64,000 nucleotides of DNA. Origin: Candidatus Woesearchaeota archaeon (GTDB taxonomy: Archaea > Nanobdellota > Nanobdellia > Woesearchaeales > JAHWIC01). The stretch is from positions 2,938-66,937 of the forward strand of contig JAHWIC010000002.1 of assembly GCA_019322805.1 (NCBI GenBank), in the 5' to 3' direction. The notes under the pieces are model-generated. The model saw only the letters and a list, made by a program, of their open reading frames with translations. It searched no databases and was not told the origin of the DNA. Positions within the stretch are counted from its first letter, which is position 1. Each line of letters opens with the position of its first letter. Both the position numbers and the translations under genes were made by a program. Positions 2,996 through 57,673 of the stretch are shown in pieces.

Positions 2996-3786
2996 GCACG
3001 TGGAAGTTTGAGCAGGTTGGGACTAAACCAAAATTAAGGAATCCAATTCTTGTAGAGGGGTTGCCAGGCATTGGAAATGTTGGCAAGGTTGCTGTTGACT
3101 TTTTAATAGACGAGCTAAAGGCAAAGAAGATTTATGATATCAGTTCATATACATTTCCCCATTCTGTTTTTGTTAACGAAAAAAACCTTGTTGAGCTGCC
3201 TAAGATAGAGGTGTTTTACAAAAAGTTTGGAAATAAAAAGAATGACATATTATTCCTTGCAGGAGACATACAGCCTATTGATGAAGTAAGCTCATATGAG
3301 TTCTCTGACAAGATGCTTGACTTGCTTGAGAAATTCGGCGGGAAAGAGGTTATAACCCTCGGAGGAATTGGCTTATCTGATGTGCCTAAGCAGCCAAAGC
3401 TGTTTTGTACAGGGAATTCTAAACAGATAATTGAAAAATATAAGAATGGAGCTAATGAGAAGCTTTACGGTGTTGTTGGCCCTATTGTAGGCGTTACTGG
3501 ATTGTTGGTAGGCATGGCTTCAAAAAGGAAGATGAATGCAATTGCATTCCTGGCTGAAACTTATGGCCATCCGATGTATCTGGGCATAAAAGGAGCAAGA
3601 GAGATACTTAAGATACTTAATAAGAACCTTAATCTTAAAATTAATATCAAAAAGCTCGACGAGGAAATCAAGGAAGTTGAGACAGAGATTGTTAAAAGAA
3701 GCGGTGAGCTGGCAAAGGTTGCCAAGCAGACTGCATTGAAGAAACTGCAGAGTAAAATCGGGAAGGAAACGAGTTATATTGGATAA
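2992..3786 (+). CDS. PAC2-family proteasome assembly chaperone-like protein (archaeal PbaA/PbaB-like)
   Basis: LVEGLPGIGNVGKVAVDFLI motif typical of PAC2/DUF75. This family is conserved immediately downstream of Nop10 in archaea. Confidence 0.6.
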   Translation: MSTWKFEQVGTKPKLRNPILVEGLPGIGNVGKVAVDFLIDELKAKKIYDISSYTFPHSVFVNEKNLVELPKIEVFYKKFGNKKNDILFLAGDIQPIDEVSSYEFSDKMLDLLEKFGGKEVITLGGIGLSDVPKQPKLFCTGNSKQIIEKYKNGANEKLYGVVGPIVGVTGLLVGMASKRKMNAIAFLAETYGHPMYLGIKGAREILKILNKNLNLKINIKKLDEEIKEVETEIVKRSGELAKVAKQTALKKLQSKIGKETSYIG

Positions 3787-4122: not shown

Positions 4123-5400
4123 ATGGACTATACTATCAAAAAGATAAAGGCAAGAGAGATACTTGATTCCAGAGGGAATCCTACTGTTGAGGCTGATATT
4201 CTTACAACATTTGGGATTGCCAGAGCTGCTGTTCCATCCGGTGCATCAACTGGTGTTCATGAGGCTCTTGAGCTTCGTGACGGCGGCAAAAGGTTTGGCG
4301 GGAAGGGTGTTCTTAAGGCTGTCGATAATGTGAATAAGGTTATTGCGAAGAAATTAGTTGGGGCTGATTGCAGAGAGCAGGAAAAAATAGACAAAATAAT
4401 GCTGGAGCTCGACGGTACTGATAATAAATCAGGGCTTGGAGCAAATGCAATCCTTGCTGTTTCGATGGCTTGCTGCAAAGCTGGCGCTGTACTGCAGGAT
4501 ATTCCTTTGTATCAATGGCTCAAGGAGTTGAGCAAAAACAAGAAATATGTCATGCCTGTGCCTTGCATGAATGTTATTAATGGAGGTGTTCATGCTGGAA
4601 ACAAGCTTGATGTGCAGGAATTCATGCTTTTTCCAGTAGGGGCAAAGTCGTTCAGCCAAGCGCTGCAGTTTGGAGCTGAGGTGTATCATACACTAAAATC
4701 AACTATAAAAAAGAAGTACGGCATTAACGCTGTTAATGTTGGGGATGAAGGTGGATTTGCGCCGCCAGTAGCTAAGATTGACGAGCCCATGGGGCTGCTT
4801 CTTGACGCTATTGACCGCGCAGGCCATAAAGGAAAAGTAGAGATCGGGATTGACGCTGCTGCCTCAGAATTTTTCAAAAATGGAAAGTATTTTCTTGAAG
4901 GAAAAAAGCTTTCTACTGCCCAATTAGCCTCAAGATATGAAGAACTTGTGAAGAAATATCCCTTAGTTAGTATTGAGGACCCTTTTTGTGAAGAGGATTT
5001 TGAAGATTTCGCATTATTGAATAAGAAGATCGGAAAAAAGGTGCAGATTGTTGGGGATGATCTGCTTGTTACCAACCCAAAGCGTGTTAAAAAAGCTATA
5101 GGAAATAAGGCATGCAATGCGCTTCTTCTAAAGGTTAACCAGATCGGAAGCATTACAGAAGCAATAGAAGCTGCAAGGCTTGCTCAAAGTGATGGCTGGG
5201 GTGTTATGGTAAGCCATCGCAGCGGAGAAACAGAGGACAGCTTTATTGCGGACCTTGTTGTTGGCTTGGGAACAGGTGAGATTAAGTCAGGAGCTCCTTG
5301 CAGGAGTGAGAGGCTTGCTAAATACAACCAATTATTGAGAATAGAAGAGGAACTTGGAAACCAAGCAAAGTATGCTGGAAAAAACTTCAGAAAACCATGA
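4123..5400 (+). CDS. eno: Enolase (phosphopyruvate hydratase)
   Basis: [26 protein letters not shown]... with full-length enolase signatures. Confidence 0.95.
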
Positions 5401-32303: not shown

Positions 32304-32406
32304 GGGCTTGTGATCTAGTGGCTATGATGTCGCCCTTACAAGGCGAATATCCCCGGTTCGAGTTGTTTGAGGTTTTACCTTTAACATGAAATTCCGGGCA
32401 GGCCCA
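32304..32406 (+). tRNA. tRNA-Val (anticodon TAC) with a ~30-nt non-canonical intron in the T-loop
   Basis: Acceptor GGGCTTG/CAGGCCC. Anticodon arm TCGCC-CTTACAA-GGCGA. T-stem CCCGG...CCGGG interrupted after TTCGAGT by tgtttgaggttttacctttaacatgaaatt (32364-32393). Discriminator A, followed by TTTT. Confidence 0.7.
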
Positions 32407-32427: not shown

Positions 32428-32487
32428 ATTGGCTTCGCCAATTTAATTAAGAAAGCCATAAATCGACTTTGTCGATTTAATTTCACT
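32428..32487 (+). repeat. Tandem pair of ~29-nt hairpin units upstream of tRNA-Gly
   Basis: agccataaat-[aattggc ttc gccaatt]-taatt followed by agccataaat-[cgac ttt gtcg]-atttaatt. Each unit has an ATAAAT TATA-like motif plus a perfect hairpin. The second unit is positioned as the tRNA-Gly promoter. Confidence 0.5.
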
Positions 32488-32559
32488 GCGGTAGTAGTAT
32501 AGTGGTTAGTATACGGCGTTGCCAACGCTGTGACCTGGGTTCAAATCCCAGCTACCGCA
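32488..32559 (+). tRNA. tRNA-Gly (anticodon GCC), intron-less
   Basis: Acceptor GCGGTAG/CTACCGC. Anticodon arm CGGCG-TTGCCAA-CGCTG. T-arm CTGGG-TTCAAAT-CCCAG. Discriminator A. Confidence 0.85.
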
Positions 32560-32659
32560 TTTCTTATTGTCTTGTGGGCTTGACGAACGGTGAAATTAAA
32601 CGCGAAGCGTTTATGGCATTATCCGTGAGGAAACCCACGAAGGTGCCAGTCTGACTTCT

Positions 32660-32692
32660 CAGCTGCCTCGGGTTCAAATCCCAGCTACCACA
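32660..32692 (+). other. Partial duplicate of the tRNA-Gly 3' half (degenerate T-arm plus acceptor)
   Basis: gggttcaaatcccagctacc is identical to tRNA-Gly positions 50-69, but the T-stem is degenerate and no 5' half is detectable. It lies ~100 nt downstream of tRNA-Gly. Confidence 0.5.
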
Positions 32693-32710: not shown

Positions 32711-32720
32711 TTTTAAATAA
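32711..32720 (+). promoter_or_regulatory. TATA box for tRNA-Ile
   Basis: ttttaaataa lies 25 nt upstream of 32745. Confidence 0.45.
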
Positions 32721-32744: not shown

Positions 32745-32872
32745 GAGTCCGTAGCTCAGTCTGGTTTAGAGCGCTGGTCTTATATGACTACGCTTTAATC
32801 AATCTAAGAGAGCCAGCGGTCTGGGGTTCAAATAGTAATGCTCAGCATTGCTTGGATGTCCCCGCGGACTCA
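32745..32872 (+). tRNA. tRNA-Ile (anticodon TAT) with two introns (anticodon loop 37/38 ~26 nt, and T-loop ~26 nt)
   Basis: Acceptor GAGTCCG/CGGACTC. D-arm GCTC..GAGC. Anticodon stem CTGGT/GCCAG with loop CTTATA|tgactacgctttaatcaatctaagag|A. T-arm TGGGG-TTCAAAT|agtaatgctcagcattgcttggatgt|CCCC-G. Discriminator A. Confidence 0.6.
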
Positions 32873-32906: not shown

Positions 32907-33051
32907 GCCCCTGTGGTGTAGTCCGGCCAATCATTCAGCCTTTTCGTGTTGGCAATCGTCCGACTCGGTGCGATTCCATCGAAAACAGGCTGGGACCTGG
33001 GTTCGAACGCCGTTAAGCGAAGCTTATGGCTTGAAAGTCCCGGCGGGGGCA
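32907..33051 (+). tRNA. tRNA-Glu (anticodon TTC) with two introns (anticodon loop ~40 nt, T-loop ~30 nt)
   Basis: Acceptor GCCCCTG/CGGGGGC. Anticodon stem CAGCC/GGCTG with loop TTTTCG|40-nt intron|A. T-arm CTGGG-TTCGAAC|gccgttaagcgaagcttatggcttgaaagt|CCCGG. Discriminator A. Confidence 0.65.
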
Positions 33052-33131: not shown

Positions 33132-33407
33132 ATGGCAAAAGCCTATGGGAAATGTAAACTATGCGGAGCGGATAGTTTTCTTAACTTTGCTGGACTTTGC
33201 AAGAAGTGCAATAAGAAAAAAGAAGGCACAGAGATAAAAAAAGAGATATTTAGTGACCGAGAAATAGAGAAAGAAGCAAAGAAGAAAGAGATGGCAGCAA
33301 TACAAGAGAAAATAGTAGAAACCAAAAAAGAAGCACCAGCAGAAGAAGCTAAGGAAGAAAAATCTGCAGAGGAAAGCAAAGAAAAGGCTGAAGATAAGAA
33401 AGAGTGA
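33132..33407 (+). CDS. Small zinc-ribbon protein with K/E-rich tail (hypothetical)
   Basis: CKLCGADSF...CKKCNKKKE followed by a low-complexity KE-rich region. Weak support. Confidence 0.3.
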   Translation: MAKAYGKCKLCGADSFLNFAGLCKKCNKKKEGTEIKKEIFSDREIEKEAKKKEMAAIQEKIVETKKEAPAEEAKEEKSAEESKEKAEDKKE

Positions 33408-33649: not shown

Positions 33650-35288
<1,639 letters not shown>

Positions 35289-35327
35289 TTATTTCAATTT
35301 TTCATGATCAGAAACTGGGCCCGTAGC

Positions 35328-35450
35328 TCAGCAGTAGAGCGCCGCCCTTGCATTATACGTTTATAGTATATAGTATACGAGCGAGGCGGAGGCCTCGGGT
35401 TCGAATATTCCAGGACCATTGGACTGGATTTGAAAGTCCCGACGGGTCCA
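35328..35450 (+). tRNA. tRNA-Ala (anticodon TGC) in the 16S-23S spacer, with two introns (anticodon loop and T-loop)
   Basis: Acceptor GGGCCCG/CGGGTCC. Anticodon stem CCGCC/GGCGG with loop CTTGCA|tatacgtttatagtatatagtatacgagcg|A. T-arm TCGGG-TTCGAAT|attccaggaccattggactggatttgaaagt|CCCGA. Discriminator A. Confidence 0.75.
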
Positions 35451-35571
35451 TCTTTTACCTTAGGTGCAGAATAATCAGATAATGCTTATTTTTCATTTGA
35501 ACCAATCAATGATTGTATTATCTTGGTTGGAAGGTTGAAATCATTTTAATGAAACCATGCATAGTTGGTAG

Positions 35572-38500
35572 TAATGCTATTAGGTGGATGACTAGGCTCA
35601 AACGCTGATGAAGGATGTGACAAGCTACATTATGCTCTGGCGAGTCGCACGTAGACTTTGAACCGGAGATTCCTGAATGAGACTTCTCATTAGATCCGTA
35701 AGGATCGGGAACGCAGGGAATTGAAACGTCTTAGTACCTGCAGGAAAAGAAATCAATTGAGATGCTGTTAGTAAAGGCGATTGAAGACAGCTCAAGGCAA
35801 ACTGAATCCTTTGTTGAAAGGCAAAGGAGATGTGGTGTTATAAGACCGCCTACATAGGTTTTCTCTTGGGAACCTGAAGTCCCTTGGAAAAAGGTACCTA
35901 AGAATGTGACAGTCATGTAAGGGTAACTGAGAAAGACCTTGGCGGTATCTTGAGTACCATTTGCTGGATACCAAATGGGAATTTGGGAGGCATCAACTTC
36001 CAACCTTAAATACGTTTTGAGTCCGATAGAGCATTAGTACAGTGATGGAAAGTTGAAAAGAACCCTTGATAGGAAGTAAAAAGAACCTGAAACCTAATAG
36101 CTATAGTAAGGTACTGCTCTTCGGAGCTGTACCGTACGTTTCGAATAACGTGCCAGGGAGTTTATCTAAGTGGCAAGGGTAATCCCTAAAGGAGTACCCG
36201 CAGGGAAACCAAAATGCTCGCAGCCTGCAAGGAGCGAGGTATGAAAGTGCCTAGAGTCACTTGGATATGACCCGAAGCCAGGCGATCTAACCCTGAGTAA
36301 GGTGAAACAAGGGTAAAACCTTGTGGAGGCCTGAAGAGGTTCTACGAGCAAGTGTTCTTCTAACTTGGGGCTAGGGGTGAAAAGCCAATCGAGCCTGGCG
36401 ATAGCTGGTTCCTACCAAAATTGGCCGTAGTCAAGTCCTAAGCGAGATAGCTAGAATGGTAGAGCTACGGATTGGGGATTTAGGTCTCGAAAGGGATCGG
36501 TCTCCTGTCCAACTCCGAATATGCTAGCGTTGTAGACCTTAGGAGACGGGGAGCCTGGGGTAAGCTTGGCTTCCAAGAGGGGAACAACCCAGACTACAGT
36601 TAAGGTCCCTAAATACTGACTAAGTGTTAAAGGGTGAAGAGTGTTCAAGGTCATAGACAGCGAGGAGGTTGGCTCAGAAGCAGCCACCCTTTAAAAAGTG
36701 CGTATACATTACGACGCTTTTAAGCGGCGTATGGCTCGCAAGACAGCTTACTTGTCAAGATCTTGGGCCTCTAAAATGGACGGGGCTAAGTCAGTTACCG
36801 ATACTGTAGACCACTCAAAAGAGTGCGTGGTAGGTAGGCGTTTTGGAAGGGCAGAAGCATTCTTGAAAAGGAATGTGAACCTTTCAAAAATGAGAATCCT
36901 GGCGGTAGTAGGATCTAAGCAGAGTGAGAATCTCTGCCACTGAAAGGGCAAGGGTTCCTTGACAATGTCAATCAGTCAAGGGTTAGTTGAACCTAACGGA
37001 GTCCATAAATTGGATACTCTGGAAAGAGCAAAAGGTTAATATTCCTTTACTATCCGAGTATACGTGGCAACACAAGTCTGGTTTCCGACTCTTTGGGATA
37101 GACCGACATAAACCTTCGTTTGTGTTAATAAGAATAAATCAGGGGAGTATCATAACGATGAGAACCTGATTAAATCTTAGAATAGTGGGTCGTATGATTC
37201 ATTCGGTTGATTCCTGGAGACCATGAAAAGGGAATCAGAAAAAATCTTGGATAATTATACCCAGAACCAGCACTGGTGCCCCTAGGTGAGAAACCTAAAG
37301 TGTGAAGGCATAACTTGATTGAGGGAATTCGGCAAATTAGTCCCGTACCTTCGGTATAAGGGATCCCTGCGATTGTGGCTTTTAGTTGCGATTGCAGGGC
37401 GTAGTGACTAAGGAGGTCCGACTGTTTAACAAAAACTTAACTGACTGCTAGCCTGCAAAGGTGTGTATAGTCAGTGAAGCCTGCCCAGTGCCAGTACTTT
37501 AAACTTGGTTCCAACTGAGCTAAGAGCTGGTATACGGCGGGAGTAACTATAACTCTCTTAAGGTAGCGTAATACCTTGTCGTTTGAATGACGACTTGCAT
37601 GAATGGCGCAACGAGATCTCCACTGTCCCCAATCAGGAGCCTCCGAACTCCCTTTCCTGGTGCAAAAGCCAGGGATCTCCAGTGGGAAGCGAAGACCCCG
37701 TGAAACTTTACTGTAGCTTATCATTGCGACGTGAGTTTTGTTGTATAGCGTAAGTGGGAGCTGCTAAGCTTAAGTCGTCAGGCTTAAGATAGGCGACGAT
37801 GTAACACCACTTTTCAGAATTTGCGTTGCTAACTTCGAAAGAAAGACATTGATAGGTGGACAGTTTGGCTGGGGTGGCACCCCGCTGAAATTGTATCAGC
37901 GGGGCCCAATGGTTGGCTCAATCCGGTCAGAAATCGGATGTCGAGTGCAAAGGCAAAAGCCAGCCTGACTGGATTCTTACTAAGATGGAATCCAGAAACG
38001 AAAGTTAGGCTTAGCGAACCTCTATGTCCTCCTTGATGGGGGCTAGAGATGACCAAAAAGTTACTCCGGGGATAACAGAGTTGTCGCGCCCGAGAGTTCA
38101 TAGAAAGCAGCGAGTCCTTCGCTGCTCTCAGGACAAATCGACGGCGCGGCTTGCTACATCGATGTCGGCTCTTCCTATCCTGGATGTGCAGAAGTATAAT
38201 TTGCTGGGCAAATTATGCTCAGTAACTTGTTACTGTATGCATCCAAGGGTGGGGGTGTTCACCCATTAAAAGGGATCGTGAGCTGGGTTCAGAACGCTGT
38301 GAGGCAGTTTGTTTGATATCTACTGGAGATGTTGATGTCTGAAGGGAAGGATCCTCTAGTACGAGAGGAACGAGGATTCGGCGCCTCTGGTTTACCGGTT
38401 ATCCGAAAGGGTAAGCTGGGCAGCTACGCGCCAAGGGATAAGAGCTGAAAGCATCTAAGCTCGAAACCCGCCTTGAAAATAGACATCTTAGGACACGAGC

Positions 38501-38605
38501 AAAATACTCGTTTAATGGAACTGATGTGTAAGTATAAAGCTTCGGCGATATATTCAGCATGCAGTTCCCAACAGTCCATTTTACCAACTATGTATGGTTT
38601 TTCAT
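35572..38605 (+). rRNA. 23S rRNA (ends approximate)
   Basis: 5' region GGTGGATGACTAGGCTCAAACGCTGATGAAGGATGTG. Sarcin-ricin, peptidyl-transferase and other conserved blocks are present (GATGTCGGCTCTTCCTATCCTGG; GGGATCGTGAGCTGGGTTCAGAACG; GCTGAAAGCATCTAAGC near 38440). Small AT-rich perfect-hairpin insertions occur, e.g. at 38190-38245. No 5S gene in the operon. Confidence 0.85.
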
Positions 38606-42566: not shown

Positions 42567-42914
42567 ATGAAGGAGAAAATACTGCTTAGAACAGCACTAA
42601 TTGTTTCTATTGTGGGCGTTACACTCCTATTTTTTATTTCTGACTTCAGTGAACTTGGAGAAACAGGCATAGAAGAGATAACAATTGACGACTTAGATAA
42701 GAATGTTAAAGTGATTGGAGCTGTTACCAAGGTTATTGATACTGATAAGGTTCTCATAATGGATATTGCCCAACAAGAAGAGTTCAAGGTTGTTGTGTTC
42801 AAGGATAAGAACATCAGCTTGAAAAGAGGTGATTATATTGAGGTTTTAGGGACAGTTGAGGAGTATGAAGGTGAGCTTGAGATTATTGGCGACAGAATAA
42901 GGCTGATTGATTAA
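42567..42914 (+). CDS. Membrane-anchored OB-fold domain protein (hypothetical)
   Basis: N-terminal TM/signal segment then OB-fold-like [12 protein letters not shown]...[17 protein letters not shown]. Confidence 0.4.
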
Positions 42915-56854: not shown

Positions 56855-57673
56855 TTACCCTAACAGGCCGCCAAGCATATTTCTTATTGTGAATCTGATC
56901 AGAAAAAAGATAGCTAGACTTGAAGCTACTAGTATGGGTATAAACTTTATTCCATCTCTTTCTTTTCCTTTGTATATTAAGCCAAGTATCAAGGAACCCA
57001 GAACAGAGGATGTCATCAAAAATACTACAGAATATCTTATTACAAAATGAATGCCAAGGCTAACTTCTGAGAAGCTTATTGGCATGGAGGTTGTCAAGGC
57101 AGTCTTAGGTACATCCAAGGCTTGTAAATTCATTGTTAGAACCTCAACCAAAAAGGTGCCTAATCCAAATAACAAAGGTGCTCCAAAACAAACAGCAGCA
57201 AATACAAATATAACATACATCATTACATTAGCCCTTATCCTGCCATCAACAAGCCCTTGCTGCCTTAGATTCCTGGCTGTTTGTTCTAATAAAGAAGCCA
57301 GTTCGCCTCCTGACCTTAGCCCAGAAACTACGAGCTCCATGGTTTTGCTTAATCGTTCTGATCTAATCCTTTGGGTCATGTCCAACAAAGCCTTGCCGAC
57401 TTCTGCGCCCATTGTGATCTCTTTTCCTATGCGATTTATTTCATCCTGAAATGGCCCAAACTCAGGCCTGGCTGACAGCAGTAAAGCCTTGTCAGTAGTT
57501 AAACCTGCCCTTAGATTAGATGTCATCAGCTGCAGAACATCCGGCAGTATACCCTCAACAAATGTTGCCTTTGCATCTGCTCTTAACAGTAATATAAAAT
57601 AAACGAGAATTTGGAATAAAAAGAAAATCCCAACAACAGAAAGCAGAAAAGGGACTTCAACAAACAAAGCCAA
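56855..57673 (-). CDS. Type II secretion system F-domain membrane protein (TadC/FlaJ C-terminal-half-like)
   Basis: T2SSF-like cytoplasmic domain (FGPFQDEINRIGKEITMGAEVGKALLDMTQRI...LSKTMELVVSGLRSGGELASLLEQTA) flanked by TM helices. Confidence 0.65.
   Translation of the reverse strand: MALFVEVPFLLSVVGIFFLFQILVYFILLLRADAKATFVEGILPDVLQLMTSNLRAGLTTDKALLLSARPEFGPFQDEINRIGKEITMGAEVGKALLDMTQRIRSERLSKTMELVVSGLRSGGELASLLEQTARNLRQQGLVDGRIRANVMMYVIFVFAAVCFGAPLLFGLGTFLVEVLTMNLQALDVPKTALTTSMPISFSEVSLGIHFVIRYSVVFLMTSSVLGSLILGLIYKGKERDGIKFIPILVASSLAIFFLIRFTIRNMLGGLLG

Follow-up and report, generated by a model that had tools for sequence, protein, structure and literature searches.

The locus at 32745-32872 (+) of the window, as we call the whole stretch of DNA analysed here (64,000 nucleotides), is predicted with high confidence to be a working gene for a tRNA-Ile whose UAU anticodon is encoded in the genome. 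The class was already known, having been described in 2011, and the gene is ordinary for DPANN archaea. The one mildly unusual trait is the presence of both intron types, at positions 37/38 and 59/60, in one tRNA-Ile gene, an arrangement common to several relatives. The preliminary description had placed a tRNA-Ile with a TAT anticodon at exactly these positions, which is borne out by an ARAGORN score of 125.0 after splicing and by orthologues in about 100 archaeal genomes among the matches listed. It had also described the first intron; the second one, in the T-loop, had been overlooked.

The gene consists of three exons and two introns, all on the forward strand. Exon 1 (32745-32784, +) covers tRNA positions 1-37 with the 5' strand of the acceptor stem, the D arm, the 5' strand of the anticodon stem and C32, U33, U34, A35, U36 and A37. 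Intron 1 (32785-32810, +; 26 nt) lies at the canonical position 37/38 and has a BHB motif. Exon 2 (32811-32832, +) holds positions 38-59, comprising A38, the 3' strand of the anticodon stem, the variable loop CGGTC, the 5' strand of the T stem and UUCAAA of the T-loop. Intron 2 (32833-32858, +; 26 nt), also with a BHB motif, interrupts the T-loop at position 59/60, and exon 3 (32859-32872, +) supplies U60, the 3' strands of the T stem and the acceptor stem and the discriminator A73; CCA is not encoded. Read off the sequence, the 5' part is GAGTCCG-TA-GCTC-AGTCTGGTTTA-GAGC-G-CTGGT-CTTATA up to the 26-nt intron 1, and the 3' part is A-GCCAG-CGGTC-TGGGG-TTCAAA, followed by the 26-nt intron 2 and T-CCCCG-CGGACTC-A. 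The acceptor stem is thus formed by GAGTCCG/CGGACTC, the stem of the D arm by GCTC/GAGC and the anticodon stem by CTGGT/GCCAG. The mature tRNA has 76 nt once both introns are removed.

ARAGORN analysis of the sequence spliced at the BHB-defined sites returned tRNA-Ile(tat) with a score of 125.0 and a perfect cloverleaf. All 21 of 21 stem pairs are standard, the anticodon loop reads CUUAUAA, the T-loop UUCAAAU, and position 73 is an A. The mature sequence folds with z = -5.26 relative to shuffled sequences, none of 200 shuffles folding equally well. When the second excision was searched exhaustively with the first held at 37/38, every scoring candidate was a tRNA-Ile(tat), and the best score (125.0) belonged to the removal of a 26-nt intron. 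In its unspliced form the gene was missed by the default ARAGORN scan and by the Rfam gathering-threshold scan of the 64-kb window. It was also missed by ARAGORN with the intron option, a failure due to the T-loop intron. The Rfam tRNA model at a relaxed threshold gave 15.3 bits at the locus, a weak score because the model cannot bridge the second (T-loop) insertion. A TATA-box-like element read from the sequence, TTTAAATA at 32712-32719 (+), precedes the mature 5' end by 26-33 nt and is a putative archaeal promoter element of the gene. Elements resembling TTTAAATA, TTTTATAAA, are present upstream of the orthologues in two related loci, L049 and L057.

Both introns show the same architecture of two 3-nt bulges and a 4-bp helix. 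With the cut placed behind nucleotide 2 of each bulge, the resulting loops are CUUAUAA and UUCAAAU. In intron 1, the 4-bp central helix pairs CUUA (positions 32-35) with a UAAG close to the intron's 3' end, and the bulges are UAU (U36-A37-u) and AGA (a-g-A38). The outer helix is the 5-bp anticodon stem; the inner helix h' has only 2 bp (G-C, A-U), which makes intron 1 borderline between a strict and a relaxed BHB. The MFE fold of the isolated intron 1 segment does not give the BHB, and the motif was judged by its geometry and its conservation among orthologues. Intron 2 is a strict hBHBh' with a central helix UUCA (54-57)/UGGA, bulges AAU (A58-A59-u) and UGU (u-g-U60), the 5-bp T stem as outer helix and an inner hairpin of 8 bp (AGUAAUGC/GCAUUGCU, z = -3.62).

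The anticodon depends on the splice register, and another register would turn the gene into a tRNA-Met/Ile2(CAU), tRNA-Leu(UAA) or tRNA-Ser(UGA). Removal of 26 nt at other offsets in the 33-nt loop-plus-intron formally leaves CTTAAGA (TAA) or CTTGAGA (TGA), and anticodon calls vary under unconstrained intron removal in the neighbouring tRNAs. Nevertheless, the 37/38 register is the only one in which the cuts fall within two 3-nt bulges around a 4-bp helix; the others need a helix that does not pair or break the anticodon stem. Moreover, 16 intronless orthologues encode CTTATAA or CTTATAC directly. The boundary given in the preliminary description, CTTATA-intron-A, therefore stands, with the helix and the bulges of the BHB in place and the register confirmed by the intronless genes. 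A CAT anticodon is impossible, since T34 is located in exon 1, upstream of intron 1, and faces an A of the BHB helix (UAAG), which excludes a CAT reading as well as a sequencing error at T34 and rules out the alternative splice site that the preliminary description had considered. A different register thus has next to no probability.

A pattern scan of one genome per prokaryotic species with TAGCTCAG-N7-9-AGAGC-N6-YTTATA matched at least 120 loci. About 100 of the matches listed are archaeal, nearly all of them labelled DPANN (Woesearchaeota, Pacearchaeota, Micrarchaeota, Iainarchaeum/Diapherotrites, Aenigmatarchaeota, Parvarchaeum and Nanoarchaeota). Removal of introns gave a complete tRNA-Ile(tat) for 117 of 121 sources (the 120 loci listed and the window). 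Among the matches listed were 98 archaeal genes, 65 with the 37/38 intron only, 17 with two introns and 16 without an intron. The window gene is an orthologue of the DPANN tRNA-Ile(UAU), with alignable genes in about 100 of the DPANN genomes listed; the ARMAN-2 sequence stands outside this alignment. The proposal that the gene is a lineage marker holds in so far as it marks DPANN broadly; with matches listed from all over DPANN, it does not single out a special lineage.

Alignment of 95 unique sequences revealed an A at loop position 38 in 86 of them and a C in 9; positions 32-37 (CTTATA) were preset by the search pattern, except for the Y at position 32. With A or C at position 38, the CTTATAA and CTTATAC of the intronless genes correspond to the mature loop of the window gene spliced at 37/38. 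The stem positions were paired in 99.4% of cases in these 95 sequences, a figure inflated because the anticodon was fixed by the pattern and the set was filtered for stems and score (acceptor stem at least 6/7 pairs, anticodon stem at least 4/5, ARAGORN at least 115). At most pairs of the acceptor, anticodon and T stems the 95 sequences showed 2-9 different dinucleotides, among which 2-6 were standard pairs and some were compensatory. The BHB helix at 37/38 was fully paired in 61 of the 82 intron-bearing genes, with UAAG in 43 of those 61, and the helix at 59/60 in 11 of the 17 two-intron genes (10 orthologues and the window).

The same alignment showed a U31-G39 wobble closing the anticodon loop in 83 of the 95 unique DPANN tRNA-Ile(UAU) sequences and U-A in the other 12, together with an almost invariant C32 and A38. 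Judging from this conservation, U31-G39, C32 and A38 could be tuning elements for UAU decoding.

Around 18 of the 120 matches listed are bacterial, many of them CPR (Parcubacteria, Saccharibacteria, WWE3, Nomurabacteria, Woesebacteria), and their tRNA-Ile(UAU) genes are intronless; L013, L031, L056, L064, L074, L078, L093, L117 and L121 are among them. Two contigs with a bacterial label, L029 and L033, carry an intron-containing tRNA-Ile(UAU) of the DPANN type and may be mis-binned.

The window has about 37% G+C and contains an archaeal rRNA operon (16S at 33650-35286, 23S at 35561-38591). Among the loci fetched from the matches listed, the closest proteins were FtsY of L049 (74% identical aa) and LonB of L057 (72.5%), both labelled 'uncultured Methanosarcinales', followed by the DEAD-box helicase (69%) and FtsY (63%) of L008 and Kae1 (63%) of L097, both Woesearchaeota, ScpA (60%) of L062 (Nanoarchaeia) and Kae1 (58%) of L042 (Pacearchaeota). 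L049 and L057 are the nearest syntenic relatives among the matches listed and resemble the window in the order of their tRNA cluster. L049 has the same cluster Val-Gly-Ile-Glu, with introns of 31 nt (37/38) and 26 nt (T-loop) in its tRNA-Ile(UAU), and L057 has Ile-Glu, with introns of 25 nt and, in the T-loop, 26 nt. In the comparison with close relatives that the preliminary description had proposed, both were seen to carry the same two-intron gene. Taken together, composition and protein matches point to an AT-rich uncultivated DPANN archaeon near Woesearchaeota/Pacearchaeota as the host, a placement that is approximate.

Four loci, L030, L041, L049 and L057, are all labelled 'uncultured Methanosarcinales archaeon'. 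L049, L057 and L030 (ScpA, 57% identical aa) are linked to the window by synteny or protein matches, L041 only by its two-intron tRNA-Ile(UAU). To judge from these links, the label is probably wrong for all four.

The T-loop intron is not confined to the tRNA-Ile gene. A BHB intron at 59/60 was found in four of the five intact tRNA genes of the window (Val, Ile, Glu and Ala). The tRNA-Val(TAC) gene (32304-32406) has an intron at 32363-32392 (59/60), tRNA-Glu(TTC) (32907-33051) has introns at 32947-32986 and 33008-33037, and tRNA-Ala(TGC, G3-U70) (35317-35450), in the 16S-23S spacer, has introns after positions 37 and 59. Only tRNA-Gly(GCC) (32487-32560) was found by the default ARAGORN and Rfam gathering scans. 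Splicing of the neighbours by the BHB rule gave Val(tac) and Glu(ttc), whereas unconstrained brute-force removal gave arbitrary anticodons. From the pervasive 59/60 introns, a splicing endonuclease of broad specificity is predicted.

These neighbours also bear on the possibility that the locus is a decaying or unspliceable pseudogene that resembles a tRNA. Two introns in a tRNA of 76 nt, the failure of standard tools to find the gene and a degenerate fragment of a tRNA-Gly 3' end 53 nt upstream of it might suggest so. Against this, 21 of 21 stem pairs are intact, the spliced T-loop reads UUCAAAU and both BHBs are precise, and the two-intron orthologues L049, L057, L041 and L094 differ by compensatory changes. 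The 59/60 introns of the same type in the Val, Glu and Ala genes indicate that this is the normal build of a tRNA gene in the lineage, and a decoder is needed for AUA, a major codon. We therefore consider a pseudogene very improbable and treat the locus as a functional tRNA-Ile(UAU) gene.

The fragment upstream belongs to a 118-nt element (32575-32692) between tRNA-Gly and tRNA-Ile that is not present in the relative L049. Over its final ~25 nt it repeats the 3' end of tRNA-Gly (GGGTTCAAATCCCAGCTACC), with mismatches to be expected at C50-A64 and C2-A71. As an intron-containing tRNA the element formed no cloverleaf with any single intron, and its fold is not significant (z = -1.07); as a split tRNA it found no matching 5' acceptor or 5' half within the window. 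The element is probably the decayed remnant of a partial duplication of the tRNA-Gly 3' end; the 3' half of a split tRNA is the less likely reading. Two further candidates from relaxed ARAGORN scans were false positives: a 'tRNA-Ile(gat)' at 4161-4252 lies inside the enolase ORF and a 'tRNA-Gln' at 57194-57331 inside a T2SSF ORF.

Several other features of the region were recorded. The 16S rRNA (33650-35286) has 1637 nt, compared with 1478 nt in the model, with an insertion of ~36 nt near 33893-33928, and the 23S match is slightly longer than its model (3031 vs 2987 nt). In the segment 38726-40119, an ORF assigned to the '23S rRNA-intervening sequence protein' family (PF05635, E = 1.6e-32) starts 135 nt past the end of the 23S gene. 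It is immediately followed by Kae1/TsaD, the subunit of the t6A37 synthase that would act on A37 of tRNA-Ile(UAU). An ORF of 91 aa between the tRNA cluster and the 16S gene (33132-33407) is rich in Lys and Glu, contains two CxxC pairs and has no Pfam match; the equivalent place in L049 (~3307-3405) is taken by a very short ORF, extremely basic in composition, whose sequence (MKRSSRRWKKKGQMRWKWQRKRMKKEKRLRKKK) is reminiscent of ribosomal protein L41e. Among solved structures, the enolase (4123-5400) matched human gamma- and alpha-enolases best (E = 7e-172); chain 2pa6, the Methanocaldococcus jannaschii enolase, scored a little lower (6.8e-164). On these matches, the window enolase looks eukaryote-like, in a DPANN genome.

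Codon usage in 26 window ORFs showed 40.4 AUA per 1000 codons, corresponding to 47% of the Ile codons and making AUA the third commonest codon overall. Such a high usage requires an efficient AUA reader. ARAGORN assigns the isotype by the anticodon alone, so that a reassignment of AUA in this lineage (e.g. to Met, known from some mitochondria) is conceivable in principle, with the UAU tRNA being something other than a tRNA-Ile. An alignment of one protein, the enolase, with human gamma-enolase speaks against this: its eight AUA codons correspond to I (five), L (two) and V (one) and never to M, conserved Ile positions such as in the RIEEEL motif among them, while its ATG codons align with M. 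AUA at I, L or V and never at M indicates that AUA means Ile. In addition, the tRNA body (D arm GCUCAG...AGAGC, A73) fits the DPANN tRNA-Ile(UAU) family. We give a reassignment of AUA hardly any chance and retain the assignment as tRNA-Ile.

In the canonical archaeal tRNA-Ile2(CAU), C34 is agmatinylated post-transcriptionally by TiaS. The window tRNA has a very similar body and the same job, the specific reading of AUA as Ile, but has T instead of C at position 34, and unlike in the canonical system, CAU and TiaS are absent at the locus. Pfam scans of 52 ORFs of the 64-kb window found no TiaS, and no CAU tRNA is present in the window. One OB-fold ORF (42567-42914; 115 aa; 24.9 bits, below cutoff) was considered as TiaS and rejected, as its best PDB match had E = 0.46 and none was to TiaS. 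Pfam scans detected no EndA domain among the window ORFs either, and the window is without an IleRS, a splicing endonuclease and a U34-modifying enzyme.

A genuine tRNA-Ile(UAU) might coexist with a canonical tRNA-Ile2(CAU) and TiaS elsewhere in the genome, without any loss of the agmatidine system. A TiaS gene elsewhere is compatible with the data, as the 64 kb inspected are a part of the genome. Against it stand the lack of TiaS in the 52 scanned ORFs and of a CAU tRNA in the window, and the precedent of all archaea so far examined in this respect, Nanoarchaeum, Korarchaeum and ARMAN-2, -4 and -5, in which UAU is accompanied by the absence of TiaS and CAU-Ile2 (PMC3239211; PMC3575796). We regard coexistence as unlikely; by analogy with relatives, TiaS and tRNA-Ile2(CAU) would be missing from the rest of the genome.

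The closest described case is that of ARMAN-2, -4 and -5, which possess tRNA-Ile(UAU) but neither tRNA-Ile(CAU) nor TiaS (Fujishima et al. 2011, PMC3239211). A search of the literature on TiaS together with DPANN found nothing relevant besides this ARMAN paper (PMC3239211). The pre-tRNA-Ile(UAU) of ARMAN-2 has a 25-nt intron at 37/38 that is cleaved in vitro by the epsilon2 endonuclease, and the ARMAN-2 genome also contains tRNA introns at 59/60 (PMC3239211). The window gene resembles that of ARMAN-2 (Micrarchaeota, DPANN) in its encoded UAU and a BHB intron of ~25 nt at 37/38. In contrast, the 59/60 intron of ARMAN-2 was shown in tRNA-Cys, whereas here both introns reside in one tRNA-Ile gene, and the relatives of the host are Woese- and Pacearchaeota rather than Micrarchaeota.

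UAU tRNA-Ile had been established earlier in Nanoarchaeum and Korarchaeum (PMC6000648; PMC3575796; PMC3895270), the Korarchaeum gene having an intron (PMC6000648). As in Nanoarchaeum equitans and Korarchaeum cryptofilum, AUA would be decoded here by an encoded UAU anticodon. In a set of 167 genomes, cultured or complete, these two archaea had stood alone; the present gene, by contrast, belongs to a much larger DPANN set and carries the extra T-loop intron. The statement in the preliminary description that such tRNAs are known only from a few lineages goes back to surveys of cultured genomes and is out of date; the ARMAN genes were published in 2011 (PMC3239211), and at least about 100 DPANN genomes are added here.

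Outside the archaea, eukaryotic tRNA-Ile(UAU) likewise has an encoded UAU and an intron at 37/38, the 3' portion of which base-pairs with the anticodon region, and it is a dedicated AUA reader beside another Ile tRNA. Its U34 and U36 are modified to pseudouridine (PMC3575796). The eukaryotic genes differ from the window gene in having no T-loop intron. The tRNA-Ile2(UAU) of Mycoplasma mobile, in which U34 is unmodified, keeps its specificity only on M. mobile ribosomes (Taniguchi et al. 2013, PMC3575796). Accuracy of a UAU tRNA is thus shown to be possible via a co-adapted IleRS and ribosome (PMC3575796). As in M. mobile, a UAU tRNA would here take the place of a modified-C system in an AT-rich reduced genome; the M. 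mobile tRNA, unlike the window gene, is bacterial and intronless and replaces TilS rather than TiaS.

From archaeal tRNA biology and the ARMAN-2 precedent, we infer the following course of events. Transcription of the gene would give a primary transcript with BHB introns at 37/38 and 59/60, and an archaeal splicing endonuclease of broad specificity would cleave at both BHB sites; the 59/60 position implies such an enzyme, of the (alpha-beta)2 or epsilon2 type. An RNA ligase would join the exons and CCA would be added. The 76-nt tRNA would then be charged by IleRS and read AUA, the Ile codon that this organism uses most, filling the role of the agmatidine-modified tRNA-Ile2(CAU) of most archaea.

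A haloarchaeal tRNA-Ile mutated to U34 carried cnm5U and bound AUG and AUU too (PMC3895270). The binding of AUG by this mutant implies that accurate decoding needs some additional feature. It is a doubtful idea that DPANN, the present lineage among them, read their top Ile codon with the UAU tRNA and avoid misreading of AUG by a mechanism undescribed in archaea. One possibility is an intron-dependent modification of U34 of the eukaryotic kind, suggested by 82 of the 98 genes listed, in which a 37/38 intron is retained and its 3' end base-pairs with C32-A35. Another possibility is an adaptation of the tRNA body or of the ribosome, with U31-G39 beside the loop in 83 of 95 genes.

With the window gene and its clean intron anatomy, the documented examples of an encoded UAU in place of agmatidine on CAU grow by one. 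In public genomes the UAU strategy is the rule across DPANN and not a rarity. Owing to the 59/60 introns, four of the window's five intact tRNA genes escape default finders, which makes tRNA inventories of MAGs and claims of 'missing' decoders unreliable without BHB-aware tools. If the idea of a separate mechanism against AUG misreading were true, the two-intron tRNA-Ile(UAU) would offer a handle on a eukaryote-like strategy of AUA decoding.
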